Part shown: one piece after another, positions 774 to 35,237 of the stretch
Layout of the letters: each line of letters begins with the position of its first letter
Position numbering within the stretch: position 1 is the stretch's first letter
Assembly: GCA_024277395.1 (NCBI GenBank)
Contig: JAJRVF010000101.1
Coordinates: 1-39,526, forward strand
DNA: 39,526 nt
Direction of reading: 5' to 3'
DNA from: Campylobacterales bacterium
GTDB lineage: Bacteria; Campylobacterota; Campylobacteria; Campylobacterales; Sulfurimonadaceae
Notes under the pieces: generated by a model
Seen by the model: only the letters and a program-made list of their open reading frames with translations
The model's database searches: none
Told to the model about the DNA's origin: nothing
Program-made: the position numbers and the translations under genes

Positions 774-1664
774 ATGAGTAACAGTTTATATGAGACACTG
801 GGCGTTAGCGCTGGTGCCAGTGAAGCAGAAATAAAAAAAGCCTATCGTAAGTTGGCACGGCAGTATCATCCCGATGTTAACAAAGAGTCCGGTGCTGAGG
901 AGAAGTTTAAAGAGATAAATGCCGCGTATGAGGTTTTAAGTGATAAAGAGAAGCGTGCCAAATATGATCAGTATGGTGATGCCATGTTTGGCGGTCAAAA
1001 TTTTCATGATTTTGCGCAGGGTCAAGGTGCCGGTGTCGATTTAGATGAGATATTACGTAATATTTTTGGTGGCGGCGGATTTAGTAGTGGTGGCTTTAGC
1101 GGAGCCGGCGGCTTTAGCGGCAGTTTTGGCGGTGGGGGATTCTCTTCACAACAGCAGAGTATGAATCTTGATGTTGAAGCCAATGTGACCATACCGTTCC
1201 ATGTGGCTGCTTTAGGCGGTAAGCATTCGGTATCGCTTCAGGGTGATAGCTTTGATATTAAGATCCCTGCCGGTATTAAGGCCGGAGAGAAGCTTCGTGT
1301 CCGCGGAAAAGGAAAATCGGCGGGAGGACAAAGCGGTGATCTGTATCTTAAAATACATGTAGCTCCCAGCAGTGAGTATGAGCGTGAAGGTGATGATCTG
1401 ATAAAAAATTTTGATGTATCACTGCACCATGCTCTTTTTGGCGGAAAAATTGCTATTGATACGCTTGAGAAAGAGATTAAACTTAAAGTTCCTGAAAATA
1501 CCAAAAATGGACAACGTTTCCGTGTTAAGGGAATGGGGATAAAAAATCGTAAAAGCGGTGATCGGGGTGACTTGTATTTGCAAGCCAATGTTGTCTTGCC
1601 TAAAGTTAGTGATTTAGATGACGATCTTGTTGAGATGATGAAAAAGAAACTTCCAAAGGAGTAG
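774..1664 (+). CDS. cbpA: Curved-DNA-binding co-chaperone CbpA (DnaJ family, no zinc finger)
   Basis: N-terminal J domain ([16 protein letters not shown] motif), a G/F-rich linker and a DnaJ C-terminal domain. It is followed directly by hspR, as in the Helicobacter/Campylobacter cbpA-hspR operon. Confidence 0.85.
1354..1361. repeat. Iterated palindrome copy 1 (TACATGTA core)
   Basis: aaaaTACATGTAgctc, inside cbpA, read as I-H-V. Confidence 0.9.
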
Positions 1665-1668
1665 GGGA

Positions 1669-2046
1669 ATGCACCATTATGATGAACCGGTTTATCTCAT
1701 TAGTATTGTGTCTAAAATTTTGGACATTCACCCGCAGACACTGCGCCAATACGAGCGGGAAAATTTAATTACACCGTCGCGTTCGAATGGGAGAATTCGT
1801 CTTTATTCACAACGAGATATTGACAAAATAAAGATGATTCTGCGTCTGACACGTGAATTGGGAGTGAATTTGGCCGGTGTCGATATTGCCATTCGACTAA
1901 AAGAGCAAATTGAAGTGATGGAGCAAGAGATTGCGGAACTGCGTCATGCTCTTGCGTTGACACGAAACAGCGGTAGCGTTCCGCCTGAAAAGTCACTAGT
2001 AACCAAGCGAAGTGTCTATGAGATGATCATCTTTGAAGATGATTAA
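1669..2046 (+). CDS. hspR: Heat-shock transcriptional repressor HspR (MerR family)
   Basis: MerR-type helix-turn-helix (YLISIVSKILDIHPQTLRQYERENLITPSRSNGRIRLYSQRDI). It starts 5 nt after the cbpA stop and has an AAGGAG RBS. Confidence 0.85.
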   Translation: MHHYDEPVYLISIVSKILDIHPQTLRQYERENLITPSRSNGRIRLYSQRDIDKIKMILRLTRELGVNLAGVDIAIRLKEQIEVMEQEIAELRHALALTRNSGSVPPEKSLVTKRSVYEMIIFEDD

Positions 2047-2056
2047 AACAGTAAGA

Positions 2057-5370: not shown

Positions 5371-5907
5371 ATGAGACAAGCACTCTTTAGAATATGGCTA
5401 CGTTGGGCTGTATGGGCAACCCTTTTTAGTCTTATGGGCGCATTCGTTGTCGCTTTTGGTATGACGCTTGCGTTCTATCTTCTCAAAGGAGCGGTATCGC
5501 TAGAAGATGATGTGCTTAATGCATTGGGCGGTATTTTACTGTTTTGGTTCAGCGTATGTTGGAGTTTAGCATTGCCGTTAGGTACTTTTTTGGGGATGAA
5601 ACAGCTTTTTTCCCGATGTGTCGCAGGCTATAGGCTGCAGCTTTTTACATGTAGTTTGGAGCGTGTTGAGAAAGTGCAATACAGTGACGTCATTAAGGCA
5701 TGGCGCAAGTGGCTTTTTTTGACGATTTGGGGTGTTGCGGTTGGTGTGCTGATCATTACGGCAGTGCAAATAGTGATGCAAGGCAGAGCAGATATGTCAT
5801 TGTGGTTTCATAGTTATGTTTTGTACATTTTAATCATGCTCTCATCATTGGCAACACTGGCTTTGATGGTGCGACGATGTCCCTCGATTGTGCTGGAACG
5901 ATGCTGA
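5371..5907 (+). CDS. Hypothetical integral membrane protein (about 4 TM segments)
   Basis: Four long hydrophobic stretches (e.g. WAVWATLFSLMGAFVVAFGMTLAFYLL, LFLTIWGVAVGVLIITAV). It starts 7 nt after the previous stop. No family recognised. Confidence 0.5.
   Translation: MRQALFRIWLRWAVWATLFSLMGAFVVAFGMTLAFYLLKGAVSLEDDVLNALGGILLFWFSVCWSLALPLGTFLGMKQLFSRCVAGYRLQLFTCSLERVEKVQYSDVIKAWRKWLFLTIWGVAVGVLIITAVQIVMQGRADMSLWFHSYVLYILIMLSSLATLALMVRRCPSIVLERC
5646..5653. repeat. Iterated palindrome copy 2 (TTTACATGTAg)
   Basis: ttttTACATGTAgttt, inside the membrane-protein gene, read as F-T-C-S. Confidence 0.9.
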
Positions 5908-6617
5908 TCTTTTTAGATGTTGAAACTACGGGCTTGGCGGCTACAGATCGTATATGTTCAGTGGGCGCTATTGCAATGGAGAATAAAAAAGTATCGCTTT
6001 GTGACGAACTGATTCACCCGCAGCAAAAGATTCGACCCGATTCAATGATGATACATCATATTACCAACGAAGTTATCCGTGACAAACCCTCTTTTGCCAA
6101 CTCACCGGCATCAACATGGCTGAACGAACGTAATGAGAGTATGCATATTCTGGTGCTACATAATAGTACTTTTGAGCTGCAGATGCTGCAAAAAGAAGGA
6201 TTTCTCTGGCAGGGAGAGGTGATTGATACACTAAAATGCGTACGCCACCTTATTCCTGAGTGTGAGCAGTTCTCATTACAGTTTCTGCGCTACGAACTAC
6301 AGCTGTACAAGCACGAAGCGGCATTAGTGGAGTCTTTGGGCATTGCTGCTGTACGACCGCACCATGCATTAAGTGATGCGCTACATGTAAAAATGCTTTA
6401 TGACTATTTGCGAGATCTGGCAGATGATGCCGCCTTGCGTACCCTCTCAACGACACCGGTGTTAATACAGAAGTTTTATTTTGGGAAATACAAAGGGCGC
6501 TATATTGAAGAGATTGCGATGCAGGACAGACAATATTTAGAGTGGCTTCTGCAGCAATGTGATGAGCATAATGATGATTTGCACTACAGTATTGGTTACT
6601 ACCTGTCGCTATTGTAG
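5901..6617 (+). CDS. DnaQ-like DEDDh 3'-5' exonuclease with a C-terminal DUF3820-like domain
   Basis: Exo I motif LIFLDVETTGL, Exo II-like LHNSTFELQML, Exo III HHALSDALH, and a C-terminal FYFGKYKGRYIEEI...YLEWLL. The ATG at 5901 gives the typical MLIFLDVETTG N-terminus and overlaps the upstream stop (ATGCTGA). The listed ORF starts at 5877. Confidence 0.7.
   Translation: MLIFLDVETTGLAATDRICSVGAIAMENKKVSLCDELIHPQQKIRPDSMMIHHITNEVIRDKPSFANSPASTWLNERNESMHILVLHNSTFELQMLQKEGFLWQGEVIDTLKCVRHLIPECEQFSLQFLRYELQLYKHEAALVESLGIAAVRPHHALSDALHVKMLYDYLRDLADDAALRTLSTTPVLIQKFYFGKYKGRYIEEIAMQDRQYLEWLLQQCDEHNDDLHYSIGYYLSLL
6382..6389. repeat. Iterated palindrome copy 3 (cTACATGTAAA)
   Basis: gcgcTACATGTAaaaa, inside the exonuclease gene, read as L-H-V-K. 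Confidence 0.9.
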
Positions 6618-8485: not shown

Positions 8486-8877
8486 AGGTCGCCGTTCAGT
8501 GTGCCTCGCCGCTGCTTCAAAAGTCATTGGAAATTTTCTTAAAGCCCTATTTGAGCTCTCTTAAGCAATGTGATGTGGTATTGCGTGATTATAAGGTCGA
8601 CGATGATGAATATTGCAGTCTCTATATTGCCTCAAGTGATGATGCTGATATTAAAAAGCCCTTTTCGGAAGTAGAGCTAAAGTTGATACTGCATAAAACA
8701 CTTCGCCGTGATGAGCCAGATACGAGTGAAGTTTCCGATTTGGCAGAGGCAGTTCAAGCGATCTCTGTAGCAGATGCACACCACTCTTACAAAGAGCTAG
8801 AAGCACATATAGAACAATTGACTCAAGAGTATCAGGCCAATATTTTAAAAGCGGTCAAAGCATTTTATGGCGCCTAA
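8482..8877 (+). CDS. Hypothetical protein (131 aa, acidic)
   Basis: ATGA overlap with the mscS-family stop. No recognisable domain. Confidence 0.45.
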   Translation: MKVAVQCASPLLQKSLEIFLKPYLSSLKQCDVVLRDYKVDDDEYCSLYIASSDDADIKKPFSEVELKLILHKTLRRDEPDTSEVSDLAEAVQAISVADAHHSYKELEAHIEQLTQEYQANILKAVKAFYGA

Positions 8878-9451
8878 ATCCTTTAGCAAAAAGATTATTG
8901 CCGGAACATTCAAAGGCAGGAGTATTGCACTTCCTTCCAAAACCACAACACGCAGTTCTAAAACCATTGTACTGGAATCGTTTTTTAATACCTTGCAGTT
9001 TGACATTGTTAACGCTGCTTTTGTAGAGGTGTTCAGCGGCAGCGGCTCGGTAGGTTTGGAGGCGTTGAGTCGCGGTGCGTCACATCTGTTGTTTATGGAG
9101 CAAGATCAAGAGGCTTTGCGAGTCTTGCAGCGCAATATTAATCAGACTGATCCTGCCAAATGCAAGATATTTCGGGGAGATAGTTTTCTAAATATTGCGC
9201 AGGTTATCGCCCATTTGCAGCATATTGAAGAAAAAGCCTATTTTTATATTGATCCACCCTTTTCCTATCGGGAAGGGATGGAAGCTGTTTATGATAAAAC
9301 AGTGACGCTCATAGCGACCCTGCCTCCAAGACAGACGCGCATGATTATTGTTGAGCATATGACAAAACTGACTCTTGAGAGCACAATAGGTCCCTACACG
9401 AAACAGAAGTCCAAACGATTCGGAAAAACTACGTTAACTTATTACATGTAG
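8867..9451 (+). CDS. rsmD: 16S rRNA (guanine966-N2)-methyltransferase RsmD-like
   Basis: SAM-binding motif VEVFSGSGSVGLEALSRGA and catalytic DPPF (YFYIDPPFSY). About 190 aa. Confidence 0.7.
   Translation: MAPKSFSKKIIAGTFKGRSIALPSKTTTRSSKTIVLESFFNTLQFDIVNAAFVEVFSGSGSVGLEALSRGASHLLFMEQDQEALRVLQRNINQTDPAKCKIFRGDSFLNIAQVIAHLQHIEEKAYFYIDPPFSYREGMEAVYDKTVTLIATLPPRQTRMIIVEHMTKLTLESTIGPYTKQKSKRFGKTTLTYYM
9443..9450. repeat. Iterated palindrome copy 4 (TACATGTAg core; its last three bases form the rsmD stop codon)
   Basis: ttatTACATGTAgttt, read as Y-M-stop. It lies 17 nt upstream of the sigma54 -24 element of flgI. Confidence 0.9.
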
Positions 9452-9503: not shown

Positions 9504-10556
9504 ATGATGAAGTTAATGATGTTTCTTGTTTTGATGTTCTGTTTTAACTTAGAAGCAACGAAAATAGGTGAAGTGGCCAATATTATCGGCGTCCGTGACA
9601 ATCAGCTTATCGGCTACTCTTTGGTAGTCGGGCTGAAAAAGACCGGTGACGGTACCACTTCTAAATTTACCCTGCAATCAATCTCAAATATGCTAAAAGC
9701 CATGAATATTGATATGAACCCTGTCGATATTAAGTCTAAAAATGTTGCTGCTGTCGTAGTAACGGCAAAGTTGAAGCCTTTTGCCCATCAGGGAGATAAA
9801 ATTAATGTGGTGGTCTCTTCCATCGGCGATGCCAAATCGCTAGAGGGCGGTACCTTGCTGATGACACCGCTTAAAGGAGTGGATGGTAAAATCTATGCAT
9901 TGGCACAAGGCCCTGTTAGTATTGGCGGTAAAAACATACGTGGAGCGGGCTCCGAGTCGCATCCGACTGCCGGTGTCGTCTATAACGGTGCTTTGGTGGA
10001 GCGGGAGATCGCGCAAAATCTCTATACCCGCAATGAGGTAACGCTCTCTTTAAAAGAGTCCAGTTTTGCCAATGCGGTAGCCATTCAAAAAGTGCTTAAT
10101 GATTTCTACAAATTGCATGTTGCCGTAGCAGTGGACTCCCGAACGGTGAAACTGCAGCGTCCTCAAGAGCACTCCATGATAGAGTTTTTGGCACAGGTGC
10201 AGTCGATGTCCATCGATTATGAACAGAAGCAGAAAATTATTATTAATGAACGTACCGGTACGGTAGTTTCGGGGGTCGATATCGGTATTAAGCCTATTGT
10301 TATCACTCATGGCGATATTACCATTAAAATTAAAGAGCTTTCGCAAATGGTGACACCAAAAGGCGGTGTTGCGATAGATGAGGAGCTGATTGTCGGGATG
10401 AATGAGAATGAGCTCTATACCAAAGAAGGAACAACAACGGTTGCTAACGTAACACGTTCCTTGCAAAAACTGGGGGCGACCCCCAAAGATATTATTGCCA
10501 TTTTACAGGCAATGAAAAGTGCCGGTGCCATTGCTGCCGACCTGGAGATAATCTAA
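9504..10556 (+). CDS. flgI: Flagellar P-ring protein FlgI
   Basis: Signal peptide MMKLMMFLVLMFCFNLEA followed by a canonical FlgI sequence (RDNQLIGYSLVVGLKKTGD..., ...ILQAMKSAGAIAADLEII). AAAGG precedes the ATG at 9504/9507. The listed ORF begins at the TTG at 9483. Confidence 0.92.
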   Translation: MMKLMMFLVLMFCFNLEATKIGEVANIIGVRDNQLIGYSLVVGLKKTGDGTTSKFTLQSISNMLKAMNIDMNPVDIKSKNVAAVVVTAKLKPFAHQGDKINVVVSSIGDAKSLEGGTLLMTPLKGVDGKIYALAQGPVSIGGKNIRGAGSESHPTAGVVYNGALVEREIAQNLYTRNEVTLSLKESSFANAVAIQKVLNDFYKLHVAVAVDSRTVKLQRPQEHSMIEFLAQVQSMSIDYEQKQKIIINERTGTVVSGVDIGIKPIVITHGDITIKIKELSQMVTPKGGVAIDEELIVGMNENELYTKEGTTTVANVTRSLQKLGATPKDIIAILQAMKSAGAIAADLEII

Positions 10557-10846
10557 TGGAACCTTTACATGTAAATTCAGCCTTGCTGTCGCATCAGACA
10601 ATTCCAACACTGCAAGAAAATATGGACAGAGCGGCTCTTAAAGAGAAAACTGACGCATTTGAAGCCATTATTGTCAAGATGCTTCTTGACAATGCGATGA
10701 AAGATGACAGGGATCTTTTTTCAGCTCAAAATGACCCCGGAGACGCAATCTATAAATCGATGTATCGTGATGAGCTCTCAAAAGTCAGTGCCGGTAGTTT
10801 TGGTTTTTCTGAAATGCTGTTTGACCATTTGAGTGCAAAAATTTAA
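10556..10846 (+). CDS. flgJ: Rod-binding protein (short FlgJ-like protein, no muramidase domain)
   Basis: 96 aa with the motif FEAIIVKMLLDNAMK...FGFSEMLFDHL, typical of the FlgJ N-terminal rod-binding domain. Its position after flgI matches C. jejuni Cj1463. Confidence 0.65.
   Translation: MEPLHVNSALLSHQTIPTLQENMDRAALKEKTDAFEAIIVKMLLDNAMKDDRDLFSAQNDPGDAIYKSMYRDELSKVSAGSFGFSEMLFDHLSAKI
10564..10575. repeat. Iterated palindrome copy 5 (perfect 12-mer TTTACATGTAAA)
   Basis: Codons 4-7 of flgJ, read as L-H-V-N. Confidence 0.95.
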
Positions 10847-14269: not shown

Positions 14270-15274
14270 ATGGCTCACGGCGGCAAAAGTGTCGGCTATA
14301 TGTTTATTGTTATGGCGTCGGTGGTGATTGTACTAGCGGGAATTAAACTTGCTGCGGTTATTATTGTACCGTTTTTGCTCTCTTTGTTTCTCGCTATTAT
14401 TTTGGCACCGCTGTTTGAGTGGTTGAAATCGCGGGGACTGCCTGATGCACTCTCTATTTTTGCGGTTATGTTAGTGTTTATGGGGTTGTTGAGTATGGTC
14501 ACGGTTCTTGTGGGAAACTCAGTACAGGATTTTAACAATAATCTGCCCATATATGAAGCCAAACTTTCACAAAGTATGAATGAGATGATTCTTTTTTTAG
14601 AGGGCTTTGGAATTGACCTGCCTAATGAAGAGCTTTTTAAGGTGTTTGATCCGAAAACGACTATGAAATATATTGCCGGTACCTTGAAAAACTTCGGTTC
14701 TATCATTACCAACAGCTTTATGATTTTATTGATGGTAATTTTTATGCTGCTGGAGATGTCACATTTTCAAGATAAGTTTCGTGTTACCGATCGTGAGAGT
14801 ATGCAGCACATGCAAGAGATTGCCGATAAGATCAAACATTATATGGTGTTGAAAACCGGTATATCGATGGTGACCGGGGTAATTGTTTCGTTGATGCTGA
14901 TGGCAGTGGGAGTAGACTATTACATTCTTTGGGGGCTGGTTGCTTTTTTGCTCAATTTTATTCCCAATATCGGTTCTATAATTGCTGCCATTCCGGCGGT
15001 TATTTTGGCGTTGGTGCAGTTTGGTGCGGGAACAGCTGCATTAGTGGCACTTGGCTATATTGTTATTAATATTGTATTTGGTTCCATTGTGGAACCGAAA
15101 ATTATGGGACGGGGCTTGGGACTCTCAACATTGGTAGTCTTTTTATCGCTCATCTTTTGGGGATGGCTGCTTGGTCCTATTGGGATGCTGCTTTCCATTC
15201 CCTTGACTATCATGGTCAAGATTGCTCTGGATGTCCGGCCCAATACCAAGTGGATTGCTACGCTATTGGCTTGA
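14270..15274 (+). CDS. AI-2E family transporter (PerM/YhhT-like permease)
   Basis: 334-aa polytopic membrane protein with the characteristic C-terminal region FLLNFIPNIGSIIAAIPAVILAL...EPKIMGRGLGLSTLVVFLSLIFWGWLLGPIGMLLSIPLT. Confidence 0.75.
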   Translation: MAHGGKSVGYMFIVMASVVIVLAGIKLAAVIIVPFLLSLFLAIILAPLFEWLKSRGLPDALSIFAVMLVFMGLLSMVTVLVGNSVQDFNNNLPIYEAKLSQSMNEMILFLEGFGIDLPNEELFKVFDPKTTMKYIAGTLKNFGSIITNSFMILLMVIFMLLEMSHFQDKFRVTDRESMQHMQEIADKIKHYMVLKTGISMVTGVIVSLMLMAVGVDYYILWGLVAFLLNFIPNIGSIIAAIPAVILALVQFGAGTAALVALGYIVINIVFGSIVEPKIMGRGLGLSTLVVFLSLIFWGWLLGPIGMLLSIPLTIMVKIALDVRPNTKWIATLLA

Positions 15275-15287
15275 TTTACATGTAAAT
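15274..15287. repeat. Iterated palindrome copy 6 (perfect 14-mer ATTTACATGTAAAT)
   Basis: Starts at the last base of the AI-2E transporter stop codon and lies 22 nt upstream of the Crp/Fnr-family gene. Confidence 0.95.
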
Positions 15288-18800: not shown

Positions 18801-19438
18801 GGTATGAGCGAACCCGTCAACTTTTTGGAGCCGATCACCACAGACTTCAGAAAGCAAAAATCCTTCTTTTAGGTGTAGGCGGTGTGGGCAGCATGGCACT
18901 GGACTGTCTCTATCGAACCGGTATTACGGACATTACCATTGTCGATTTTGATACCTATGACGCGAGCAATATGAACCGTCAGCTTTGGTCGGAATTACAT
19001 GTAAATGAAATCAAGGTTGAAGCACTTAAAACACATTATCCTGCCGTGACACCGCTTAATCAGAAAGTTGATGCTGCTTGGATAGAGCAGTTTGATTTTG
19101 AACCATACGATCTTGTTTTAGATGCCATTGACGATATTCATGCCAAATTGGCACTGGCACAGCGCTGCTACAAAAAACTTATTTCAGCGACCGGTTCGGC
19201 AAAAAAGATCGACCCGACCCAGGTGCGGGTGGACTCCATCTGGAGAAGTCAGGGGGATCCGTTTGCTTCAAAAATCCGCAGAGAACTCAAACGCCGAAAG
19301 TTTGACCGAAATTACCGTTGTATTTTCAGTGCCGAGACGGCACGTACCAAAGAGAAAGGAAGCTTTATGGGGGTGACGGCGGCATTTGGTCTGGCGATGA
19401 GTTCTGAGGCAATCCAACAGCTGTTGCGAAACAAATAA
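18791..19438 (+). CDS. tcdA: ThiF/HesA-family adenylyltransferase, likely tRNA threonylcarbamoyladenosine dehydratase (TcdA-like)
   Basis: Rossmann motif ILLLGVGGVGS, plus DFDTYDASNMNRQ and LDAIDD motifs. The short form of 215 aa fits TcdA/CsdL-like proteins. Confidence 0.6.
   Translation: MAVRYERTRQLFGADHHRLQKAKILLLGVGGVGSMALDCLYRTGITDITIVDFDTYDASNMNRQLWSELHVNEIKVEALKTHYPAVTPLNQKVDAAWIEQFDFEPYDLVLDAIDDIHAKLALAQRCYKKLISATGSAKKIDPTQVRVDSIWRSQGDPFASKIRRELKRRKFDRNYRCIFSAETARTKEKGSFMGVTAAFGLAMSSEAIQQLLRNK
18995..19004. repeat. Iterated palindrome copy 7 (10-mer TTACATGTAA)
   Basis: Inside the tcdA-like gene, read as L-H-V-N. Confidence 0.9.
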
Positions 19439-20103: not shown

Positions 20104-21125
20104 CGCCATACTCCTTCAATCCGGTAGGAGCAGTAGGGGCATGCACCCTCTTTGTTGAGATGATTGGTAACGAACTGTCCTACATGACCGTGTCGGTCAA
20201 TGACTTTGTTGCGGCACTGTGGGCAGTAGGTCGATTCGTAATCTTCGTCATCAATATTGCCGACATAGAGATATTTCAATCCTGCTTCTTGACCGATTTT
20301 ATAGGCGCGACGTAATGTTTGTGAAGGTGTGCGTGGAACATCTAGCATTTTATACATCGGATGAAATGCCGAAAGATGCCATGGAATGGAGGAGTCGAGT
20401 TCGGCAATAAAATTGGCAATTGAGCGAATCTCTTCGTCGGAATCGTTTTTTCCTGAGATTAGCAGAGTGGTAATCTCAATCCAGATACCTTTGTTATGAG
20501 CATATTGTACTGCCTCAAGAACCGGTTTGAGTCGTGCACCGCAAGTCTCCTGATAAAAAGTATCTGAAAATGATTTAATGTCAATATTCATTCCGTCAAG
20601 GTATGGAGCAAGCAGATCAAGTGCTTTGCGAGTTTCGTAACCGCTGGTAACATAGATGTTTTTCAATCCTTTCTGATGGGCTAATTTTGCTGTATCGTAG
20701 GTATACTCAAAAAAAACGATAGGCTCATTGTAGGTGTAGGCAATGGAATCGCAGCCGTTTTCAACAGCGAGTTCTACTATGTGCTCCGGAGTTGCCTCTT
20801 GACCGACAATATGGTGTTGATGTTCTTGTGGATATTGTGAAATGGTGTAGTTTTGGCAAAATTTACATGTAAAATTGCATCCGACAGTTCCAAAAGAGAA
20901 GACCGATTAATCGGGAAGAAAATGAAACATCGGTTTTTTCTCTACAGGATCAATATTGATAGCGGCAGCACGCCCGTAAACCAGGAGTTTAAGCTCGCCA
21001 TTTTCGACGCGTCGCACTCCACAGATACCATATTCACCTTCATTGAGTTTGCAGGCATGAGCACAGGCTTGACATACAATACTGCCGCTGTCTAATTTTT
21101 TATGTAACCACGCTGTTGCAGACAT
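20100..21125 (-). pseudogene. AmmeMemoRadiSam-system-type radical SAM enzyme interrupted by one in-frame TAA (complement of 20907-20909)
   Basis: The listed ORFs 20907..21125 and 20100..20666 are in the same frame, and the 240 nt between them is open. It reads ...[34 protein letters not shown]...YNEPIVFFEYTYDTAKLAHQKGLKNIYVTSGY... The CxxxCxxC cluster lies downstream of the stop. Confidence 0.8.
20862..20873. repeat. Iterated palindrome copy 8 (perfect 12-mer TTTACATGTAAA)
   Basis: Inside the radical SAM pseudogene (minus strand). It encodes F-T-C-K within the CNFTCKFC Fe-S motif. Confidence 0.95.
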
Positions 21126-21146
21126 TTGAAACTCCTTAAGTGACTA

Positions 21147-21156
21147 TTACATGTAA
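21147..21156. repeat. Iterated palindrome copy 9 (10-mer TTACATGTAA plus an extra half-site)
   Basis: Intergenic divergent promoter region. ATTACATGTAAAATGTAAT contains a third half-site, ATGTAAT, at 21158-21164. Confidence 0.9.
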
Positions 21157-21191
21157 AATGTAATATTTATTTTCATTGTTTTCATATAAAA

Positions 21192-21200: not shown

Positions 21201-21223
21201 AAAAAAAATTAAAGGAGTGTGTA

Positions 21224-22170: not shown

Positions 22171-23179
22171 ATCAATTTCGGTTGCCGTTGTCGGTGCAAG
22201 TGGATACACGGGGCTTGAACTGCTGAAAATTCTCATTAATCATCCGGTGTTTGCTATTACATATGTGGCAACAAGCGAAGGTGGAGTGACACTCGATGCC
22301 TTGCATCCTGCACTCAAAGATGTATTTACATGTAATGTTGAAAAAGCAGACGTCTCAGAGATAGCATCGCGTTGCGATTTGGCTTTCTTGGCATTGCCGC
22401 ATCAGGCTTCAATGGGCTTTGTCAAAAAGCTGCTGCCCCGCGGTGTCAAAGTGGTTGACCTTTCGGCGGATTACCGTCTCAAACGTGAAACTTATGAACA
22501 ATATTACTGCCCTCATGAAGATGAAGAGCATTTAAGAAGCGCAGTGTATGGACTTCCGGAGCTCTGTCGTGATGCCATTAAAACAGCGTCGTTGGTGGCG
22601 AATCCTGGCTGCTATCCTACTGCTGCAATTTTAGGATTATTACCATTTTTACCGTTTATTGATGAGCAGTTTCCTGTTTTTATAGATGCTAAAAGCGGAG
22701 TAAGCGGCGCGGGTAAAGTATGTTCACCCAGCACGCACTTTATCGGTATCAATGAAAATATTTTTGCTTATAAAGTATTGTCACATCGACATGAACCTGA
22801 AATTAAAGAAAAACTGCATCTTCACAGCGGTAAGATATTCGATATTAATTTTGTGCCCCACCTGATACCGGCAACACGGGGGGAACTCATTGATGCGTAC
22901 ATGCTCTTAAGCAAAGAGATTGAACCGCTTGAAATACTGAAAGAGTACTATGCCAATGAGCCGTTTGTCCGAATTTTTGATGCACCGGTTAGCATTAAGT
23001 CCTGCGCAGGAACCAATTTCTGCGATATTTATGCTCAACGGAAAGGAAGCAAGCTTTACGTGAACAGCAGTGTCGATAATATATTGCGAGGCTCGTCCTC
23101 TCAAGCCGTTGCCAATGCCAATTTGATGATGGGACTCAATGAGTCGTTAGCGCTGCCTACTATTGCATATGTCCCGTGA
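22163..23179 (+). CDS. argC: N-acetyl-gamma-glutamyl-phosphate reductase
   Basis: VAVVGASGYTGLELLKIL, the active-site region LVANPGCYPTA, and ...DNILRGSSSQAVANANLMMGL. The ATG at 22163 overlaps the greA stop. The listed ORF starts at 22148. Confidence 0.9.
   Translation: MSKSISVAVVGASGYTGLELLKILINHPVFAITYVATSEGGVTLDALHPALKDVFTCNVEKADVSEIASRCDLAFLALPHQASMGFVKKLLPRGVKVVDLSADYRLKRETYEQYYCPHEDEEHLRSAVYGLPELCRDAIKTASLVANPGCYPTAAILGLLPFLPFIDEQFPVFIDAKSGVSGAGKVCSPSTHFIGINENIFAYKVLSHRHEPEIKEKLHLHSGKIFDINFVPHLIPATRGELIDAYMLLSKEIEPLEILKEYYANEPFVRIFDAPVSIKSCAGTNFCDIYAQRKGSKLYVNSSVDNILRGSSSQAVANANLMMGLNESLALPTIAYVP
22326..22335. repeat. Iterated palindrome copy 10 (10-mer TTACATGTAA)
   Basis: Inside argC, read as F-T-C-N. 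Confidence 0.9.
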
Positions 23180-27737: not shown

Positions 27738-28874
27738 TTGTTCTCATTTAACGGTAAAACCTTGTCACTTCATGCGAAAGTGCAGGGGGATACTGTTGCC
27801 ATTGTGATCAACGGCATGATGAATGTCAAAAGCATTGCCTCAATCGAACCGTTGCTTCAGCAGTTACTGACACATCCGCTCCCCTCAAAACGGTTTGAAT
27901 GGCACCTGCAGGAAGTGACGCACTTCGACAGTGCTGCCGCCCTTTTGCTTTATATGTTTGAGAAAAAAGCACGCTCATTGGGAGCTACATGTAAATTTTA
28001 TACTCAGACGCATCATCAAAACATCATTGATGCTGTTTATCATCGAAATTATGAGAGCGGCAGTGTGACTGATCATCGGCTTAATGCCGTTGCGGCGATT
28101 GGAAAAACAGCCGTTGCAAAATATCGTAGTTTTAAAGACTTTTTAGCATTTGTCGGAGAACTTTTTTCTGCACTGCTCATTTATATTCTCAATCCAAAAA
28201 GTATTCGTTTTAAAGAGATCTATTATGCTATTGAAGAGAGCAGCATTAATGCGTTGGGCATTATTGCGTTAACAACATTTCTTATTGGAGTGGTGTTGGC
28301 ATATCAATCGTCGGTGCAGCTGAAAATGTACGGTGCCAATATTTTTATTGTCGATATGCTGGGTATTTCGGTACTTCGTGAGCTGGCGCCGCTGATTGCG
28401 GCTATTGTCATTGCCGGACGCAGTGGTTCGGCTTTTGCGGCACAGATAGGGGTTATGAAAATCACCGAAGAGCTTGATGCCATGAAAACGATGGGGTTTG
28501 ACCCCTATCTGTTTTTAGTGCTGCCTCGTATTATTGCATTGATGATTATGATGCCGCTGATTATTTTTTTTGCGGATGTGATGGCCATGCTTGGCGGTAT
28601 GGTGGTTGCCAGTATTGAACTGGGTATTAGTGCCCAGCTCTTTTTGGACCGCTTTAATGAAGCCGTGGCAATGAAGCACTTTTTTATCGGTATTTCCAAA
28701 GGGCCATTTTTTGGCTTTCTTATTGCTGCTATTGGGATTTTTCGAGGGTTGATGGTAGAGAATGATACGCGAAGCATTGGAATTAACACGACCAAAAGTG
28801 TTGTTGAAGCTATTTTTATGGTCATTATCTGTGATGCGATCTTCTCTATTATTTACACGAATATAGGTATCTAA
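27738..28874 (+). CDS. mlaE: MlaE-family lipid ABC transporter permease with an N-terminal STAS-like extension
   Basis: The C-terminal ~260 aa is MlaE/YrbE-like (RELAPLIAAIVIAGRSGSAFAAQIGVMKITEELDAMKTMG). The N-terminal ~110 aa looks like an MlaB/STAS domain. TTG start. Confidence 0.8.
   Translation: MFSFNGKTLSLHAKVQGDTVAIVINGMMNVKSIASIEPLLQQLLTHPLPSKRFEWHLQEVTHFDSAAALLLYMFEKKARSLGATCKFYTQTHHQNIIDAVYHRNYESGSVTDHRLNAVAAIGKTAVAKYRSFKDFLAFVGELFSALLIYILNPKSIRFKEIYYAIEESSINALGIIALTTFLIGVVLAYQSSVQLKMYGANIFIVDMLGISVLRELAPLIAAIVIAGRSGSAFAAQIGVMKITEELDAMKTMGFDPYLFLVLPRIIALMIMMPLIIFFADVMAMLGGMVVASIELGISAQLFLDRFNEAVAMKHFFIGISKGPFFGFLIAAIGIFRGLMVENDTRSIGINTTKSVVEAIFMVIICDAIFSIIYTNIGI
27987..27994. repeat. 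Iterated palindrome copy 11 (cTACATGTAAAT)
   Basis: Inside the STAS-like part of mlaE, read as A-T-C-K. Confidence 0.9.
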
Positions 28875-28875: not shown

Positions 28876-29616
28876 ATGCAGCATGTTATTGAAGCTAAAA
28901 ACATTGTCACACGTTTTGGTAAAAATGTTGTACATCAAGATCTTAATTTACATGTAAATCGCGGTGAAATCTATGGGCTGCTTGGACCTAGCGGATGTGG
29001 AAAAACGACGCTCATGAAAGAGATGGTACTGTTGCAGCATTTTCAGGGCGGAACAATGAAGGTCCTGGGGTGCGATCTTAATAACATAACGCATAAAAAA
29101 GCACAAGAACTGCGTCAGCAGTGGGGCGTACTTTTTCAGTTTGGTGCACTCTACTCTTCACTGAATATTTATGATAATATAGCACTGTCGTTACGAGAAT
29201 ATACGACAATCAGTGAAGCGCTTGTTGCGGAGATTGTTTCGTATAAATTGGATATTGTCGGTTTGGAACAGCGTGTTAAAGAGCAGTATCCTTCGCAGAT
29301 CAGTGGCGGTATGAGAAAAAAAGCAGGTTTGGCCCGAGCATTGGTGATGGATCCTCAGCTGCTTTTTTTGGATGAACCGACTTCAGGGTTAGACCCTATA
29401 TCGGCACGAGAATTTGATATGCTTATTCTACGATTACGAGAACGTTTTGATCTGAGTATTGTCATGGTCACGCATGATCTTGACTCCATTGAAGCGACAC
29501 TGGACCGTGCTGCTATACTTGATGAGAAAAGCGTGGTAGCCGAAGGTGATTTGAAGACGATAAAATCGACTAACAATGTTTTTATCAAGACCTTTTTTAA
29601 AGGAAGACAGCCATGA
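28876..29616 (+). CDS. mlaF: MlaF-like ABC transporter ATP-binding protein
   Basis: Walker A GPSGCGKTT, signature ISGGMRKKAGLARAL, Walker B LLFLDEPTSGLD. Confidence 0.88.
   Translation: MQHVIEAKNIVTRFGKNVVHQDLNLHVNRGEIYGLLGPSGCGKTTLMKEMVLLQHFQGGTMKVLGCDLNNITHKKAQELRQQWGVLFQFGALYSSLNIYDNIALSLREYTTISEALVAEIVSYKLDIVGLEQRVKEQYPSQISGGMRKKAGLARALVMDPQLLFLDEPTSGLDPISAREFDMLILRLRERFDLSIVMVTHDLDSIEATLDRAAILDEKSVVAEGDLKTIKSTNNVFIKTFFKGRQP
28946..28959. repeat. Iterated palindrome copy 12 (perfect 14-mer ATTTACATGTAAAT)
   Basis: Inside mlaF, read as L-H-V-N. Confidence 0.95.
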
Positions 29617-30572: not shown

Positions 30573-30573
30573 G

Positions 30574-31188
30574 ATGCTTTATATGGTATGGATAATCATA
30601 GCAGTGGCAATGAGTGGATGCTCTATTGTCAAAACCGTACCAAGCAAAAGCGAATATCGTTTGGTGACGCCTGAAGTGGTGCAAAAGCATCATTCGGCAT
30701 GTCATCAAAGTACGCTTAAGCTTGAGCCGGTTCAAAGTGCCAATACCTTTTTGAATCGTCAAATATACTATGTGACGAATGATATTGAGGAGCATCACTA
30801 TACACAGTCGTTATGGGCACAAAGTCCCAACAGTATGATCGAACAGCTTATCAAGCAGGTTTTGATTGAGAGCAATATGTTTGCCAGCGTATTGGACTAC
30901 CGCAGCAATGCCGATACAACATGGCGGTACGAGGTGCGTCTTTTAGATTTTATGCAATATTTTGAGCACGACATGTCTTCTTACGTTAAGGTTTCTATGG
31001 ATTTTGTACTTATCAAAAATATCGGACGCCAGGTAGTAGCATCGAAACATATTGAGATGACACTGCCGACACAAAGTGCTGATGCCAGGGGAGGAGTACA
31101 AGCGCTGAACCGGCTGCTTTCACGTATTCTTGCCAAGAGCAATGCATGGCTTGAAACACAATGTCATTACAGTGAAGAAGGGGTATGA
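30574..31188 (+). CDS. ABC-type transport auxiliary lipoprotein (DUF330/PqiC-like)
   Basis: Lipobox AVAMSGC. About 200 aa. It lies directly after the MCE gene, as in C. jejuni Cj1646-Cj1649. Confidence 0.6.
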   Translation: MLYMVWIIIAVAMSGCSIVKTVPSKSEYRLVTPEVVQKHHSACHQSTLKLEPVQSANTFLNRQIYYVTNDIEEHHYTQSLWAQSPNSMIEQLIKQVLIESNMFASVLDYRSNADTTWRYEVRLLDFMQYFEHDMSSYVKVSMDFVLIKNIGRQVVASKHIEMTLPTQSADARGGVQALNRLLSRILAKSNAWLETQCHYSEEGV

Positions 31189-32513
31189 TGAAAATTGACG
31201 AAGCCCATTTTGCCAGGCGACGCAAGAGACTCTTAGAGCAGATAGATGAGGGAGTGATACTGATTCCTGCTGCAACATACTGCATTCGCTCCAACGATAC
31301 GGAGTATCCTTTCCGTCAAAACAGTCATTTTTACTATCTTTGCGGCTTTGAAGAAGAGGGTGCCCTCTTATGGTTGCAACGTACCAAAAAAGGGACAAAG
31401 CAGATACTTTTTGTCCAGAAAAAAGATGCAGCTCAAGAACTGTGGACGGGAACACGCTTGGGTGTTCCTGCTGCAAAAAAACGCTTTCGGGTCGATGCGG
31501 TTTATGACATGGAAAAATTTGATAAGCTACTCTTAAAGCGATTGCAAGGGGTGCATCATCTCTACATAGATCTCTACGGGAACAAAAAATTTTTACAGCA
31601 TGTTCACAGCTTGTGTGCCACTTTGCATAAAGATCGCAGTGTTAGGGTGTCACCGCAGAGTTTTTTACATGTAAATGGCTTGATTGAGAGGATGCGACTG
31701 ATTAAATCCGATGCGGAGATTGCTCGTATTGAAGAGGCGCTTCGTATTACCAAAGAGGCACATGAAAAGGTGATGCAAGCAGCAAGAAAAGGGATGATGG
31801 AGTATGAGCTTCAAGCGATCATTGAGCAGGTGTTTACAACACGTGGTGCCAAAAGTGATGCCTATACCGCCATTGTTGCCAGCGGTAATAATGCCAATAC
31901 CCTGCATTATGTGGCCAATGATGCCAAGCTGCGTCACGGTGATTTGGTTCTTATTGATGCAGGGTGTGAATATCAGATGTATGCAAGTGATATTACCCGT
32001 ACGTTTCCGGTATCAGGAACGTTTTCCCCGCCACAAAAAGCACTCTACGAGATGGTACTTCAGGTACAAACACATGTCATTAAAGCTATTCGTCCGGGCA
32101 TAAAGCGCTCAAAACTACAAAAATTATGTGAAACGAAACTCTGCGAGGGGATGATAGCGCTGGGTATTCTTAAAGGGCGATGTAAAACTGTACTTAAAAA
32201 AGGAGAACATAAAAAATATTTTCCTCACGGCGTAGGTCACTGGATGGGTATTGATGTACATGACCAAGCGCCATATTATGATGAAGAAGGCAAAGAACTC
32301 TGTTTGGAGTGTGGGATGGTGCTTACCGTTGAGCCGGGAATTTATATTGATAAAAACGATAAAAGCGTTCCAAAGAAATATCGTGGTATCGGGATTCGGA
32401 TTGAAGACAATATTGTCGTCACCGAAACAGGATATCGTAATCTCTCTAAGGATATTGCCAAACGGGTTGCAGAGGTTGAAGCACTATGTGTAGGAGTAAC
32501 TCCAACCGGTTAA
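31185..32513 (+). CDS. pepP: Xaa-Pro aminopeptidase
   Basis: N-terminal AMP_N domain (YPFRQNSHFYYLCGF) and an M24 catalytic domain (DLVLIDAG..., HGVGHWMGIDVHD, VLTVEPGIY, IRIEDN). Confidence 0.9.
   Translation: MMKIDEAHFARRRKRLLEQIDEGVILIPAATYCIRSNDTEYPFRQNSHFYYLCGFEEEGALLWLQRTKKGTKQILFVQKKDAAQELWTGTRLGVPAAKKRFRVDAVYDMEKFDKLLLKRLQGVHHLYIDLYGNKKFLQHVHSLCATLHKDRSVRVSPQSFLHVNGLIERMRLIKSDAEIARIEEALRITKEAHEKVMQAARKGMMEYELQAIIEQVFTTRGAKSDAYTAIVASGNNANTLHYVANDAKLRHGDLVLIDAGCEYQMYASDITRTFPVSGTFSPPQKALYEMVLQVQTHVIKAIRPGIKRSKLQKLCETKLCEGMIALGILKGRCKTVLKKGEHKKYFPHGVGHWMGIDVHDQAPYYDEEGKELCLECGMVLTVEPGIYIDKNDKSVPKKYRGIGIRIEDNIVVTETGYRNLSKDIAKRVAEVEALCVGVTPTG
31664..31675. repeat. Iterated palindrome copy 13 (perfect 12-mer TTTACATGTAAA)
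   Basis: Inside pepP, read as L-H-V-N. Confidence 0.95.
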
Positions 32514-32915
32514 ACCTTCATCACGAACTTCTTTAAATTGATCGGCATCGGCTTCAAAATCAAAAATATACATAGGAACATGAGGGATTTTTCGGTCATC
32601 TTTTTTATATAAATGCATGGGCATGAACGTGTCATGTTCTGTTTCTGCAAAAGCAACCGCATCAACACCGCTTGCAAGATCAATGACATTGGTAATGCCG
32701 TATTGTGAGCAGAATTTGGAAAATACTGCATCTTTGACCTCTTCAGGAAGTGTTTGCGGTGTGTTTAAAAAGATACTAAAGTGAATGGGTGCGGGAGAAT
32801 CATCACGTACCGATGGTTGCGCCATAATAATGTATTCAACACCCTCAAGATGTGTCTGAATTTCCTCAAGATGTAAATGCCGTGTAGCTTTGATTGCTTT
32901 ATTGTTAGAGTGCAA
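32484..32915 (-). CDS. Hypothetical protein (143 aa)
   Basis: The TTG start abuts the TAG stop of the upstream GGDEF-EAL gene. An alternative internal ATG gives MAQPSV... No domain recognised. The 3' end overlaps pepP convergently by 30 nt. Confidence 0.4.
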   Translation of the reverse strand: MHSNNKAIKATRHLHLEEIQTHLEGVEYIIMAQPSVRDDSPAPIHFSIFLNTPQTLPEEVKDAVFSKFCSQYGITNVIDLASGVDAVAFAETEHDTFMPMHLYKKDDRKIPHVPMYIFDFEADADQFKEVRDEGLTGWSYSYT

Positions 32916-34739
32916 CTAATATTCCTTTAATGTAAAGTCGGGTTCATCTAAAAAATATCCCTGTACAAATTCTGCACCGCTTTGTTGTGCATAGAGTAGC
33001 TCTTTTTCGCTTTGAATGGTTTTAACAACAACGTCAATATTCATATTTTTAGAGAGTTGTATGAGTTTATAGGTGTCATTATTGACCGTAATATAGTCAA
33101 GTTTGAGCATATCAGGTCCCAAATAGATAATCTCTTTGAAGTCGGTGGTTTCAATGTCAATATTGTCCAAAGCGATACGAACCTGAAAGGATTTGATGAG
33201 ATCAAGTTGTTCTTTAATACGCTCTTTGACAATCGTATTGTGGTGATTGAGTCCGTTGATCTCAATGCAGAGATAGGTTGCTATTGCTGGGGCATTACGC
33301 AACTCTTCTTGTAATGTTTTCATAAACGTATCATGACAGAGTGTTGTGATATGGATGTTAAGGTGCAGTGTGACATGATGCTTTTTAATCAATATGACAG
33401 CTTGTCGTAATATGAATGTATCAAGTGCTATGGCAATGGGGTCATTAATGATAAGATCAATAAAATGGCTGGCTCGAATAACGTCGTGTTCCGGTGTTAC
33501 AATACGGGCAAAAACTTCATAAGACCGGATACTCATATTGGTAGCATCATAGATGGGTTGAAACATGGCATGAATGCGATTTTCTTTAAGTGCCTCTTGC
33601 AACTCAAAAATAATACGGGATTTTTTACTGGAGTTAAAATTACCTTCTTCGGGACTGCTTAAGCTGTTCTTTTCAATTTTTTGAAGCTCGGCCTCCGCTT
33701 CGGCAATAGCTTCCTGCAGGGTTTTTTGCTCTTCGGGATGTCTGTTAATAACAATTTGCAAATCAATATTTATATAGAGTCCCTCGGCAATAATAGGCTG
33801 TTTGGAAATGGACTCAATAATACGTGATGCCAAAATATCGGCTTTTTCATCTTTTTTACGTTTGTAAAAGACAATGAAAGTAGCATCCTCAAAATGGACA
33901 AAAATATCTTGGCGTCGTGTAACACGTAAAATACGACTGGCCACCGATTGTAAAATAATATCGGTAATTTCATTATCATAGCGTGTTTTAATAGCCGTAA
34001 AATCGTTAATACGCAGTAAAATAATTTGATAATAATTGGCATCAAGAGTCTTCATGATTTCATGATAGTAGCGTCTGCTAAAGACCTGTGTGGTTGGATC
34101 AATCATACCGTCATCACGTTGACGATAGAGGAAGAAAAGCCGGATATAAGCAATAACCAAAAGAATAATCAGCAATAGGGTAATAGTAAAACTCAACTCG
34201 TTGAGCGGATTGATAATCTCTTCTATCTTCTGGAGCGGCTTGTCATTAATTTGAAGCAGGAAAAGTAGTGTTACCTCTGCCTCTTGAACCATGGGCAAAA
34301 CAAGATACTCGTTGTCATTGGTTGCAAAAACAGAGATTTTTTGCGTTGTGTAGCTTTGTAACAACTCTTTTTCTAAGTGTCTAACATCGGGTACATAAGC
34401 CCTCTTTGGTACGGTTGTGACGTTTTGAAAATGGTTTCCCTCTTTTTTAATCAGGGTGATAGCAGCAATGGTTTCAGACAAAAAAAGAGAAAGCACTTCA
34501 TGATTGCTTTGTTCTCTCTCTTTATTGCTTAAATACTGAGTACGGTCATTTTTCAGGTATCGTGCTACATTATAAAACTGTTTTTCTGTAGTAGCAAGAA
34601 AGTGTTTGTAGGTAATATTATGAAGCTTGGTCATGGTTGATGTGTAGTCTTGATAAACAAAAATTAACATTAACGCCATCGTTGGCAACAATACTAAAAA
34701 GATGACGGAAAACTTACCAAGTTTTAGTGGTGCTAACAT
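32916..34739 (-). CDS. Membrane-anchored signalling protein with degenerate GGDEF and EAL domains
   Basis: Two TM segments flank a periplasmic region of about 150 aa. The GGDEF-domain scaffold (DPTTQVFSRRYY...INDFTAIKTRYDNEITDIIL) carries HFEDATF in place of RxGGDEF. The EAL-domain scaffold (FQPIYDATNMSIRSYEVFARIV..., KLD, QGYF) has EVF for EAL, DNID for DDFG and lacks EGVE. Confidence 0.75.
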   Translation of the reverse strand: MLAPLKLGKFSVIFLVLLPTMALMLIFVYQDYTSTMTKLHNITYKHFLATTEKQFYNVARYLKNDRTQYLSNKEREQSNHEVLSLFLSETIAAITLIKKEGNHFQNVTTVPKRAYVPDVRHLEKELLQSYTTQKISVFATNDNEYLVLPMVQEAEVTLLFLLQINDKPLQKIEEIINPLNELSFTITLLLIILLVIAYIRLFFLYRQRDDGMIDPTTQVFSRRYYHEIMKTLDANYYQIILLRINDFTAIKTRYDNEITDIILQSVASRILRVTRRQDIFVHFEDATFIVFYKRKKDEKADILASRIIESISKQPIIAEGLYINIDLQIVINRHPEEQKTLQEAIAEAEAELQKIEKNSLSSPEEGNFNSSKKSRIIFELQEALKENRIHAMFQPIYDATNMSIRSYEVFARIVTPEHDVIRASHFIDLIINDPIAIALDTFILRQAVILIKKHHVTLHLNIHITTLCHDTFMKTLQEELRNAPAIATYLCIEINGLNHHNTIVKERIKEQLDLIKSFQVRIALDNIDIETTDFKEIIYLGPDMLKLDYITVNNDTYKLIQLSKNMNIDVVVKTIQSEKELLYAQQSGAEFVQGYFLDEPDFTLKEY

Positions 34740-34763
34740 AAGAAAACTTTACTTTTTAAGTAA

Positions 34764-35237
34764 TTATAACATACCCTTAACAACAGTAGTGATTCCTACA
34801 TGTAAATTATAGTGAGCAATAGGAAAATCATCATCTTTGTGTTCTAAATTGATCATATAGCCGCTTAAATAGGTTCCTAGTGTTTCCAATTCAATAGGTA
34901 TGTAAGTGCTACAGCGCGTTGTGCTGTAGTGTGTATTTTGAAGCTTGCGGGTCTCATTGCTCTCTTGAATGGTAAAAGCCAATAGTTTTAGCGATACCAA
35001 ATCACACCATTTTAAAAACAGTTCGGGTGTCAGTGAATCAGAAATATTCCCTTCAGGGGTAAACAGCAGTTGTTGCTCTCGTAAAGGTATCAGTACCGAT
35101 AAAACTGCAGTAACAAAAGGAACGGTTTTCTCCGCCCAGAAGGGAGCCTCGTCACTGCGAACCAATGCTTCAGCAATTGTAGTTACAATTTCCTCTGTTG
35201 TAGCGGTGTCAAGTTGTTGAGCCAAAGATGGTGACAT
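34764..35237 (-). CDS. Hypothetical protein (157 aa)
   Basis: ATG preceded by AAAGG. No domain recognised. First gene of the minus-strand cluster that contains the GGDEF-EAL gene. Confidence 0.45.
   Translation of the reverse strand: MSPSLAQQLDTATTEEIVTTIAEALVRSDEAPFWAEKTVPFVTAVLSVLIPLREQQLLFTPEGNISDSLTPELFLKWCDLVSLKLLAFTIQESNETRKLQNTHYSTTRCSTYIPIELETLGTYLSGYMINLEHKDDDFPIAHYNLHVGITTVVKGML
34797..34804. repeat. Iterated palindrome copy 14 (cTACATGTAAAT)
   Basis: Inside the 157-aa hypothetical gene (minus strand), read as L-H-V-G. Confidence 0.9.

Follow-up and report, generated by a model that had tools for sequence, protein, structure and literature searches.

An iterated palindrome in the Sulfurimonadaceae as a candidate self-recognition word in natural transformation

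Genomic words that act at the level of DNA are known in depth from three groups, the Neisseriaceae, the Pasteurellaceae and the cyanobacteria, and their origin and function are debated. The first two groups carry the DNA uptake sequence (DUS) and the uptake signal sequence (USS), and the receptor of the Neisseria DUS is the minor pilin ComP. The cyanobacterial word is the highly iterated palindrome HIP1 (GCGATCGC); methylated HIP1 raises transformation in Synechococcus up to 100-fold, and it is now proposed to be an uptake sequence. Among Campylobacterota, Campylobacter jejuni takes up only DNA that is methylated at RAATTY (PMC10046745). Here we describe a dispersed 8-bp palindrome, TACATGTA, in a 39,526-bp stretch from a Campylobacterales bacterium of the family Sulfurimonadaceae (GenBank assembly GCA_024277395.1, contig JAJRVF010000101.1; the whole stretch is called the window below) and in some of its relatives. 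We tentatively read it as a lineage-specific word for self-recognition, akin to DUS, USS and HIP1, that is favoured in the course of natural transformation and may be recognised when methylated.

The window contains 14 copies of TACATGTA where 0.58 are expected, and 100 dinucleotide shuffles never gave more than three. With expectations of 0.35-0.6, the excess is 24-40-fold. ACATGT occurs 17 times against 12.3 expected, and 14 of the 17 hexamers lie within TACATGTA; a recount thus bears out the numbers given in an earlier, sequence-only reading of this DNA. Thirteen of the 14 core positions listed there also stand, the exception being a copy placed at 27987, which is the start of ACATGT; the 8-mer starts at 27986. 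Five copies are the perfect 12-mer TTTACATGTAAA (10564, 15275, 20862, 28947 and 31664; 0.01 expected), and two of these extend to the 14-mer ATTTACATGTAAAT (15274-15287 and 28946-28959), again as had been described. The excess withstands codon-aware shuffling, which the same reading had proposed as a check. Shuffling synonymous codons within the window genes leaves a mean of 3.25 copies and shuffling codon order a mean of 2.47, both means including two intergenic copies that the shuffles keep fixed, and neither procedure gave more than six.

Where do the copies lie? Frame analysis agrees with what had been claimed: seven copies are read as [L/I]-H-V (four of them L-H-V-N), four as x-T-C-x and one as Y-M-stop at the end of rsmD, while two (15277 and 21148) are clearly intergenic. 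The copy at 20864 falls in a doubtful 80-amino-acid open reading frame (ORF) without a Pfam match, so it is probably non-coding as well. Outside the 14-mer the flanks have a mean identity of 26%, and information content is at background more than 7 bases from the centre. The longer dispersed repeat that the sequence-only reading had allowed for was therefore not seen: the copies share nothing beyond a 14-bp palindrome and are not part of a longer or mobile repeat. Miniature inverted-repeat transposable elements and repetitive extragenic palindromic sequences are longer conserved elements that are usually intergenic, and most copies here are coding. Association of the word with promoters, terminators or RNAs was considered and rejected. 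The intergenic copies overlap no promoter-like hexamers or terminator-like sites, which leaves the earlier mention of promoters unsupported, and the window has no Rfam or tRNA matches.

Is the word peculiar to this stretch? Relatives were sampled as 80 species-level loci around CheA in species-representative genomes. CheA places the window in the Sulfurimonadaceae; its best matches are all proteins of metagenome-assembled genomes, with identities of 93%, 87% and 85%. TACATGTA reaches 3.4-8.4 copies per 10 kb in 13 of the 80 species, where nearly every ACATGT lies inside it; in the enriched genomes there is one site per 1.2-2.9 kb across every sampled region. Four further species have 3-4 copies per 20 kb, and the remaining relatives, including all Sulfuricurvum, have zero or one, so that the counts are sharply bimodal. 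The pooled enriched set (280 kb, 14 genomes) holds 135 copies against 5.2 expected, a 26-fold excess, and the pooled non-enriched relatives (1.0 Mb) hold six against 15 expected. In metagenomes, a scan with MurA gave no close relative of the window, the best match having 74% identity; it did yield an enriched locus, L223, with 10 copies in 7.8 kb of a different genomic neighbourhood, and the Neisseriaceae locus that serves as a positive control below. The enrichment is therefore not confined to the window. Sister genomes, to which the sequence-only reading had pointed, share it in 13 cases around cheA and in one lineage around murA, and most of the other relatives lack the word.

On the CheA tree the enriched species form at least four groups (three or four clades at least), parted by species without the word, and the identities of three other genes agree that the enriched groups are not each other's nearest relatives. 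Sites apparently common to distant enriched clades were considered as a sign of descent or transfer and rejected, as their flanks are unrelated and they lie in variable linker regions; they are probably convergent gains or alignment effects. Viral contigs were scanned for ATTTACATGTAAAT, which gave 120 single chance matches and no phage with dispersed enrichment. One viral contig, IMGVR_UViG_3300025301_001295 (L130:10583-10801, 52% GC), has five TACATGTA copies within 220 bp, several of them as TTTACATGTAA. This cluster looks like an operator or iteron and not like dispersed enrichment.

Does the pressure act on the DNA or on the proteins? LHV tripeptides occur 67 times in the enriched genomes against 13.8 expected from amino-acid composition (4.9-fold), and 60 of the 67 are encoded by YTACATGTA; in the non-enriched relatives there are 17 against 43 expected. 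T-C dipeptides are encoded by ACATGT in 50 of 70 cases in enriched genomes and in 8 of 73 in non-enriched ones. At orthologous positions the sites arise by substitution, without indels, and replace other residues. For example, the asd site reads F-T-C-K/N in eight enriched species and Y-E-C-D or C-E-D-E in others. The pepP site reads L-H-V in enriched species and [I/L/R]-D-[V/I] in non-enriched relatives, and the site in the ABC ATPase gene reads L-H-V in the former and L-T-I or L-S-I in others. These data directly support a pressure that acts at the DNA level and overrides protein sequence, which upholds the original suggestion that the DNA word, rather than the proteins, is the target; the agent may be selection or drive.

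Sites also persist once they have arisen. In alignable coding DNA, window sites are kept in five of six cases in L002, four of five in L001 and four of five in L003, three comparisons that are not mutually independent because the species share ancestry. The background fraction of unchanged 8-mers in the same alignments is 0.20, 0.11 and 0.09, respectively, and site conservation among close relatives is 4-10 times above it.

The full motif is a palindrome of 10-14 bp, tTACATGTAa with lineage-specific outer bases, in a subset of the Sulfurimonadaceae. In enriched genomes the eight positions of the core are essentially fixed and about equally constrained, and one base further out, 75-90% of half-sites have T/A, giving the 10-bp palindrome. 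The two positions beyond are lineage-specific: the frame reads ATTT..AAAT in the window and its three closest relatives and CYTT..AARG in most other enriched clades. Coding sequence makes up 96% of the DNA and holds 118 of 130 pooled sites (~91%), a 2.3-fold preference for non-coding DNA. The 118 coding sites are read as [LIV]-H-V in 71 cases, x-T-C-x in 45 and Y-M-x in two. Spacing is near random, with a coefficient of variation (CV) of 0.94 over pooled pieces of 20-40 kb.

Near-misses are rare where the word is common. In enriched genomes, 11 of 12 one-letter variants of the core have observed/expected ratios of 0-0.7, the exception being TGCATGTA at 1.3. The depletion covers all positions, and transversions as well as transitions (TAGATGTA at 0.17, TACGTGTA at 0). 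Counted by position pair, one-off copies number 12 (1/8), 26 (2/7), 17 (3/6) and 10 (4/5), and every pair is below expectation. Variants at the four inner positions, where the change breaks CATG, occur about as often as expected in non-enriched relatives (0.7-1.9); their depletion is therefore specific to enriched genomes. Variants that contain CATG are low in enriched and non-enriched groups alike. Some of the surviving near-misses carry the flank dialect, and these look like decaying or nascent sites.

A methylation core at ACATGT or CATG had been suggested by the sequence-only reading, and the data favour neither its presence nor its absence: the eight positions are about equally constrained, and avoidance of CATG is the same with and without enrichment (ratios of 0.77 and 0.67). 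In enriched genomes, ACATGT copies that lie outside the 8-mer are at about the family background. Restriction avoidance of ACATGT was rejected as the key to the pattern, the hexamer being only mildly low in non-enriched relatives (0.72, maximal-order model). A signature of deamination or very-short-patch repair was rejected too, since T-for-C neighbours are not specifically depleted and all neighbours are. As a separate observation on short palindromes, GATC is strongly depleted (observed/expected 0.19) in L023, L058, L065 and L069 pooled, and GGCC is low in every group (0.31-0.55), which in both cases probably reflects restriction avoidance.

A blind screen for over-represented 8-mers was run in every locus. 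At least eight other Sulfurimonadaceae lineages have dispersed words of their own, each private to one or two species and present at 8-18 copies per 12-23 kb where less than one is expected. The words listed for sister lineages are CCACATGCC, CTACATCCA (L049; 17 copies, strands 9/8), CTCACGCA (L037; 18 copies, strands 4/14), AACACGCAAC (L077; 10 copies in 12 kb), AAACGCAG (L008 and L050; 8 and 10 copies), GCACGTAAC (L027; 9 copies, strands 2/7) and the palindromic CAGCGCGCTG (L016; 10 copies). CACATGCC is found 15 times in 23 kb of L004 (strands 8/7), and TCCACATGCC 12-14 times in L064. Like TACATGTA, the alternative words are DNA-level features: they lie in coding DNA in several frames, both sense and antisense, and several are fully specified asymmetric 8-10-mers. 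In total, at least nine different 8-12-mers are seen in the family, some palindromic and some not, and none is as widespread as TACATGTA. The screen gave no over-represented word in about 35 loci, among them all those of Sulfuricurvum. ACAT or CATGT is common to four of the words and ACGCA to three, which hints at drifting specificity with modest statistical support. It is conceivable, at odds somewhat short of even, that DNA words for self-recognition, each specific to a lineage, form a system that evolves fast and extends across the Sulfurimonadaceae as a family.

Two further observations concern these words. Three of them, unlike the rest, show a strand skew of about 75-78% (CTCACGCA in L037, 4+/14-; CACGTAAC in L027, 2+/7-; AAACGCAG in L008, 2+/6-), and may be polar signals, similar to Chi or to FtsK-orienting polar sequences (KOPS), or may reflect gene orientation. 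AGATGCCA is weakly enriched in L024, L040, L052 and L060, a clade of sister species (5-9 copies per ~20 kb, ~1 expected), and may be a weaker or younger word common to that clade.

One locus picked up by chance served as an unplanned positive control. In L246 (ODTK01000235.1, 21 kb, 55% GC), aGGCAGCCTGAAAa is present in 62 perfect copies and nine one-off copies on both strands, with a spacing CV of 1.14. We take this word to be the Kingella-type dialect of the DUS. A real uptake sequence is thus sharp and randomly spaced, a pattern similar to that of TACATGTA. aGGCAGCCTGAAAa also appears in the literature on Neisseriaceae, in a paper on uptake-sequence dialects (PMC7371117) and in another on the genus Kingella.

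How could such a word accumulate? If it serves self-recognition in transformation, it would be favoured at DNA uptake, at the recombination step, or at both, and fragments bearing it would preferentially be taken up or integrated. New copies arising by point mutation would therefore spread through the population and near-misses would be replaced, by molecular drive and possibly by selection as well. The word could in this way reach about one copy per 1-3 kb and be imposed on genes in the two reading frames that can accommodate it. Its reader would probably be a dimer, because the word is palindromic, and might recognise it in methylated form, by analogy with RAATTY in C. jejuni and HIP1 in cyanobacteria; these two precedents make a role linked to transformation plausible. 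An excess at the DNA level, costly origin in place, persistence, depletion of near-misses, dialects and replacement of one word by another are the signature common to uptake sequences and HIP1. The sequences show that signature; competence, preferential uptake or recombination, a reader protein and any methylation of the word are inferred.

Several points weigh against a role in transformation. A screen with Pfam and regular expressions found no competence, receptor, candidate reader, restriction-modification or DNA methyltransferase gene in the window or the flanking sequence searched, and the open-access full text yielded no report of natural transformation in Sulfurimonas. Neither the established DUS of Neisseriaceae nor the USS of Pasteurellaceae is a palindrome. 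An identical 8-bp core is found in three or four clades at least, split by lineages without the word; a transferable specificity gene, such as one for a methyltransferase, therefore fits more easily than a vertically inherited receptor. The apparently unrelated words of related species amount to a faster turnover than that of the Neisseriaceae dialects. Conservation and near-miss depletion are also expected of a binding site that is simply selected. Finally, about 20-40 kb was sampled per genome, which bounds the view of whole-genome distribution, islands and prophages.

The main rival explanation, to which we give a lower but appreciable probability, is an origin linked to methylation without a role in uptake: a mobile methyltransferase would recognise the palindrome or its ACATGT/CATG core. 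Either short-patch, methyl-dependent mismatch repair would turn near-misses into perfect sites, as in Elhai's model for HIP1, or the word would be a strand-discrimination mark for MutH-like nicking, with selection for about one site per kb. This explains the palindrome and the patchy distribution well, since the word contains classic type II target sequences and its scatter across clades resembles that of mobile restriction-modification or methyltransferase genes. A different palindromic word in at least one other lineage (CAGCGCGCTG in L016) also fits, as does the density of one site per 1.2-2.9 kb, which is near the ~1 per kb that Elhai argued for HIP, and alternate HIPs of cyanobacteria co-occur with matching methyltransferases. 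The near-misses fit less well. They are depleted at all eight positions, transversions included, and not just at the T-to-C changes of deamination repair, and they are not concentrated at the outer bases as in HIP1. Specificity here extends over 10-14 bp with lineage-specific outer bases, and to our knowledge such length with dialect flanks is unusual for a methyltransferase. Several sister words are asymmetric, fully specified 8-10-mers, poor methyltransferase targets, and CATG is avoided equally in genomes with and without enrichment. Moreover, Xu et al. take the conservation of HIP1 sites as favouring selection over biased repair, and conservation is similar here.

It is improbable that the word is the binding site, kept by selection, of an abundant dimeric protein with a role in chromosome organisation or segregation (Noc/ParB-like, SlmA-like or nucleoid-associated). 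The 14-bp palindrome has an ATTT....AAAT frame like that of the Noc site, its sites are strongly conserved among close relatives, and a role in nucleoid structure was proposed for HIP1 by Xu et al. A very rough extrapolation, with an assumed genome size of ~2.3-2.8 Mb, gives 800-2300 copies per genome. About 91% of the sites are coding, their positions appear random (CV 0.94) and the preference for non-coding DNA is only 2.3-fold; the word is dense everywhere and costs amino acids, where sites of the Noc or ParB kind would be tens of regional, mostly neutral ones. The known sites of Noc, SlmA, MatP and ParB number tens per genome, far below that extrapolation. Close relatives without the sites, or with an entirely different and sometimes asymmetric word, would be unexpected of a core system. 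A Chi-like recombination hotspot read by AddAB or RecBCD, with the palindrome working in both orientations, is more doubtful still. Chi sites are over-represented words of 5-8 bp that differ between lineages and lie mainly in core genes, strand-skewed sister words (CTCACGCA, CACGTAAC and AAACGCAG) would fit a polar signal, and a Chi-like component has been suggested for HIP1. However, known Chi sites are asymmetric and biased in orientation, and we know of no palindromic Chi; TACATGTA is its own reverse complement and cannot carry the polarity of Chi or KOPS. An excess of 26-40-fold and altered peptides go beyond what is known for Chi (roughly 5-10-fold in Escherichia coli), and a general depletion of one-letter variants is not a described feature of Chi. 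What remains is a signal in protein or RNA (an LHV or TC peptide, or the mRNA motif UACAUGUA), a mobile repeat or an assembly artefact, and these readings are effectively excluded. The palindrome appears in mRNA from either strand, which would suit an RNA role and makes strand analysis alone indecisive; but two unrelated peptides are encoded, some copies are intergenic, nearly all LHV come from one codon triplet, and the sister-lineage words occur in both sense and antisense orientation. A mobile repeat is contradicted by the unrelated flanks past the 14-mer (mean identity 26%), and an artefact by genomes that different studies assembled independently and that have the word in frame at orthologous positions.

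The genes of the window are ordinary chromosomal ones (dnaJ-like, murA, rsmD, flgI/M/K, a two-component system, surE, asd, cheV/A/W, mlaEFD and pepP), and the individual copies are distributed among them as follows. The copy at 1354..1361 lies in the dnaJ-like gene (774-1664, +) and is read I-H-V, that at 5646..5653 lies in an ORF without a Pfam match (5371-5907, +) and is read F-T-C-S, and that at 6382..6389 lies in a gene for an RNase_T/ExoX-like exonuclease (5877-6617, +) and is read L-H-V. At the 3' end of the RsmD-family gene (8867-9451, +; PF03602), the copy at 9443..9450 is read Y-M-stop and supplies the T and A of the TAG stop codon (9449-9451). A 12-mer at 10564..10575 (core 10566-10573) is read L-H-V-N at the start of a 96-amino-acid ORF (10556-10846) between flgI and flgM. 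The 14-mer at 15274..15287 (core 15277-15284) is intergenic, between an AI-2E transporter gene that ends at 15274 and a crp-like gene that starts at 15309. In the ThiF-family gene (18791-19438, +), the copy at 18996..19003 is read L-H-V-N and is kept in L003, L010 and L007.

Two copies lie in an unusually long gap of 557 bp (20667-21223) between a divergent radical-SAM gene (-) and a yidB-like gene (+), for which no Rfam match was found: the 12-mer at 20862..20873 (core 20864-20871), where the doubtful 80-amino-acid ORF is the only one over it, and the intergenic copy at 21148..21155, upstream of the yidB-like gene (21224-21628). The copy at 22327..22334 in asd (22148-23179, +) is read F-T-C-N, and the exact word is kept in seven other enriched species. 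In the mlaE-like gene (27738-28874, +), the copy at 27986..27993 is read A-T-C-K in a variable linker that also varies by indels. The second 14-mer, at 28946..28959 (core 28949-28956), is read L-H-V-N in the ABC ATPase gene (28876-29616, +) and is kept in L002, L001 and L003. A 12-mer at 31664..31675 (core 31666-31673) is read L-H-V-N in pepP (31185-32513, +). The last copy, at 34797..34804, is read L-H-V-G in an ORF on the minus strand (34764-35237) and is kept in L002, L001 and L010; non-enriched relatives have L-H-I there, from other codons. The window also contains a lost site. At 23464-23471 it reads TTCGTGTT, with four mismatches, where L002, L001 and L003 all have TACATGTA at the orthologous position, a divergence unusually far given the 93% identity of CheA to L002.

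The sampled loci gave some observations of other kinds. A Sulfuricurvum metagenome-assembled genome has an array resembling clustered regularly interspaced short palindromic repeats (L057:15600-18000), with 37 repeats of GTTTCAATACAACAAATGTATCGGTTCAAG at a period of ~66 bp. The k-mer screen also picked up local tandem repeats unrelated to the word, at L235:13505-13700, L243:3687-4190 and in clusters in L251; the units in these loci are the 21-bp CATAATTAACCCTCAAATCAT, the 9-bp ATAAACGCN and clusters of the heptamer GGGGAAC.

In the open-access full text we found nothing on TACATGTA, no account of uptake sequences in Sulfurimonas or Campylobacterota, and no CATG-containing methylation motif from Sulfurimonas; the only Sulfurimonas methylome found, that of S. 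denitrificans, is reported with the motifs CGCG, CCNGG, GATC and CCGG. The kind of element is already known, iterated genomic words being represented by DUS, USS and HIP1. New here are the phylum, the AT-rich palindrome with lineage-specific flanks, and relatives with different words or none. If a role in self-recognition holds, this would be the first uptake-sequence-like system in Campylobacterota, as far as the literature search showed. The words would then bias exchange toward DNA with the same word; in these chemolithoautotrophs they would set barriers to recombination and mark species, and specificity would switch from one close relative to another. Close relatives that lack the word or have another one form a natural comparative series for finding the reader or methyltransferase, and with this case one can ask whether transformation is what such words serve in general, the role now proposed for HIP1. 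In practice, the word is a marker for binning and classifying Sulfurimonas-like contigs in metagenomes, could help to detect foreign islands, and might make these bacteria, which are hard to manipulate, transformable.

How does the word compare with described systems? The likeness to DUS, USS and HIP1 drawn in the sequence-only reading is apt. The Noc site (ATTTCCCGGGAAAT) and parS-type palindromes share with the motif of the window clade a palindromic form, a length of 14 bp and the ATTT....AAAT frame. A genome has tens of Noc or parS sites, with a regional distribution. Unlike these, TACATGTA occurs once per 1-3 kb, mostly in coding DNA, its frame is CYTT..AARG in other clades, and many close relatives lack it. 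Methylated RAATTY of C. jejuni belongs to the same phylum and is a short palindrome that marks self DNA for uptake (PMC10046745); unlike TACATGTA, it is a degenerate 6-mer and is frequent anyway in an AT-rich genome.

DUS and USS share with TACATGTA a fully specified word of 9-12 bp at about one copy per 1-3 kb. USS in coding DNA impose particular peptides, and TACATGTA does likewise. The Kingella-type DUS of L246 is similar in that perfect copies outnumber one-off copies and spacing is random-like. Lineage-specific dialects are a further likeness (PMC7371117 for DUS), the sharing of cores among sister words being only suggestive statistically. By contrast, DUS and USS are asymmetric and have a proven uptake bias, and the distribution of TACATGTA is patchier among relatives, with a seemingly faster turnover of words.

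HIP1 and TACATGTA are both exact 8-bp palindromes that lie mostly inside genes, at a similar density of about one site per 1-3 kb and with an excess of 15-300-fold for the former and 26-40-fold for the latter. In both cases sites are kept between species above background, and some lineages lack the word or have a replacement. One-letter deviations from HIP1 fall mainly on its two end bases (Elhai 2015), and its density is periodic at 10-90 kb (Xu et al. 2018). Unlike HIP1, TACATGTA belongs to another phylum, is AT-rich, has neither a GATC nor a CGATCG core, and is without a cognate methyltransferase in the window or flanks searched; its one-off variants show no preference for the end bases, and some of the words that replace it in sister lineages are not palindromes.

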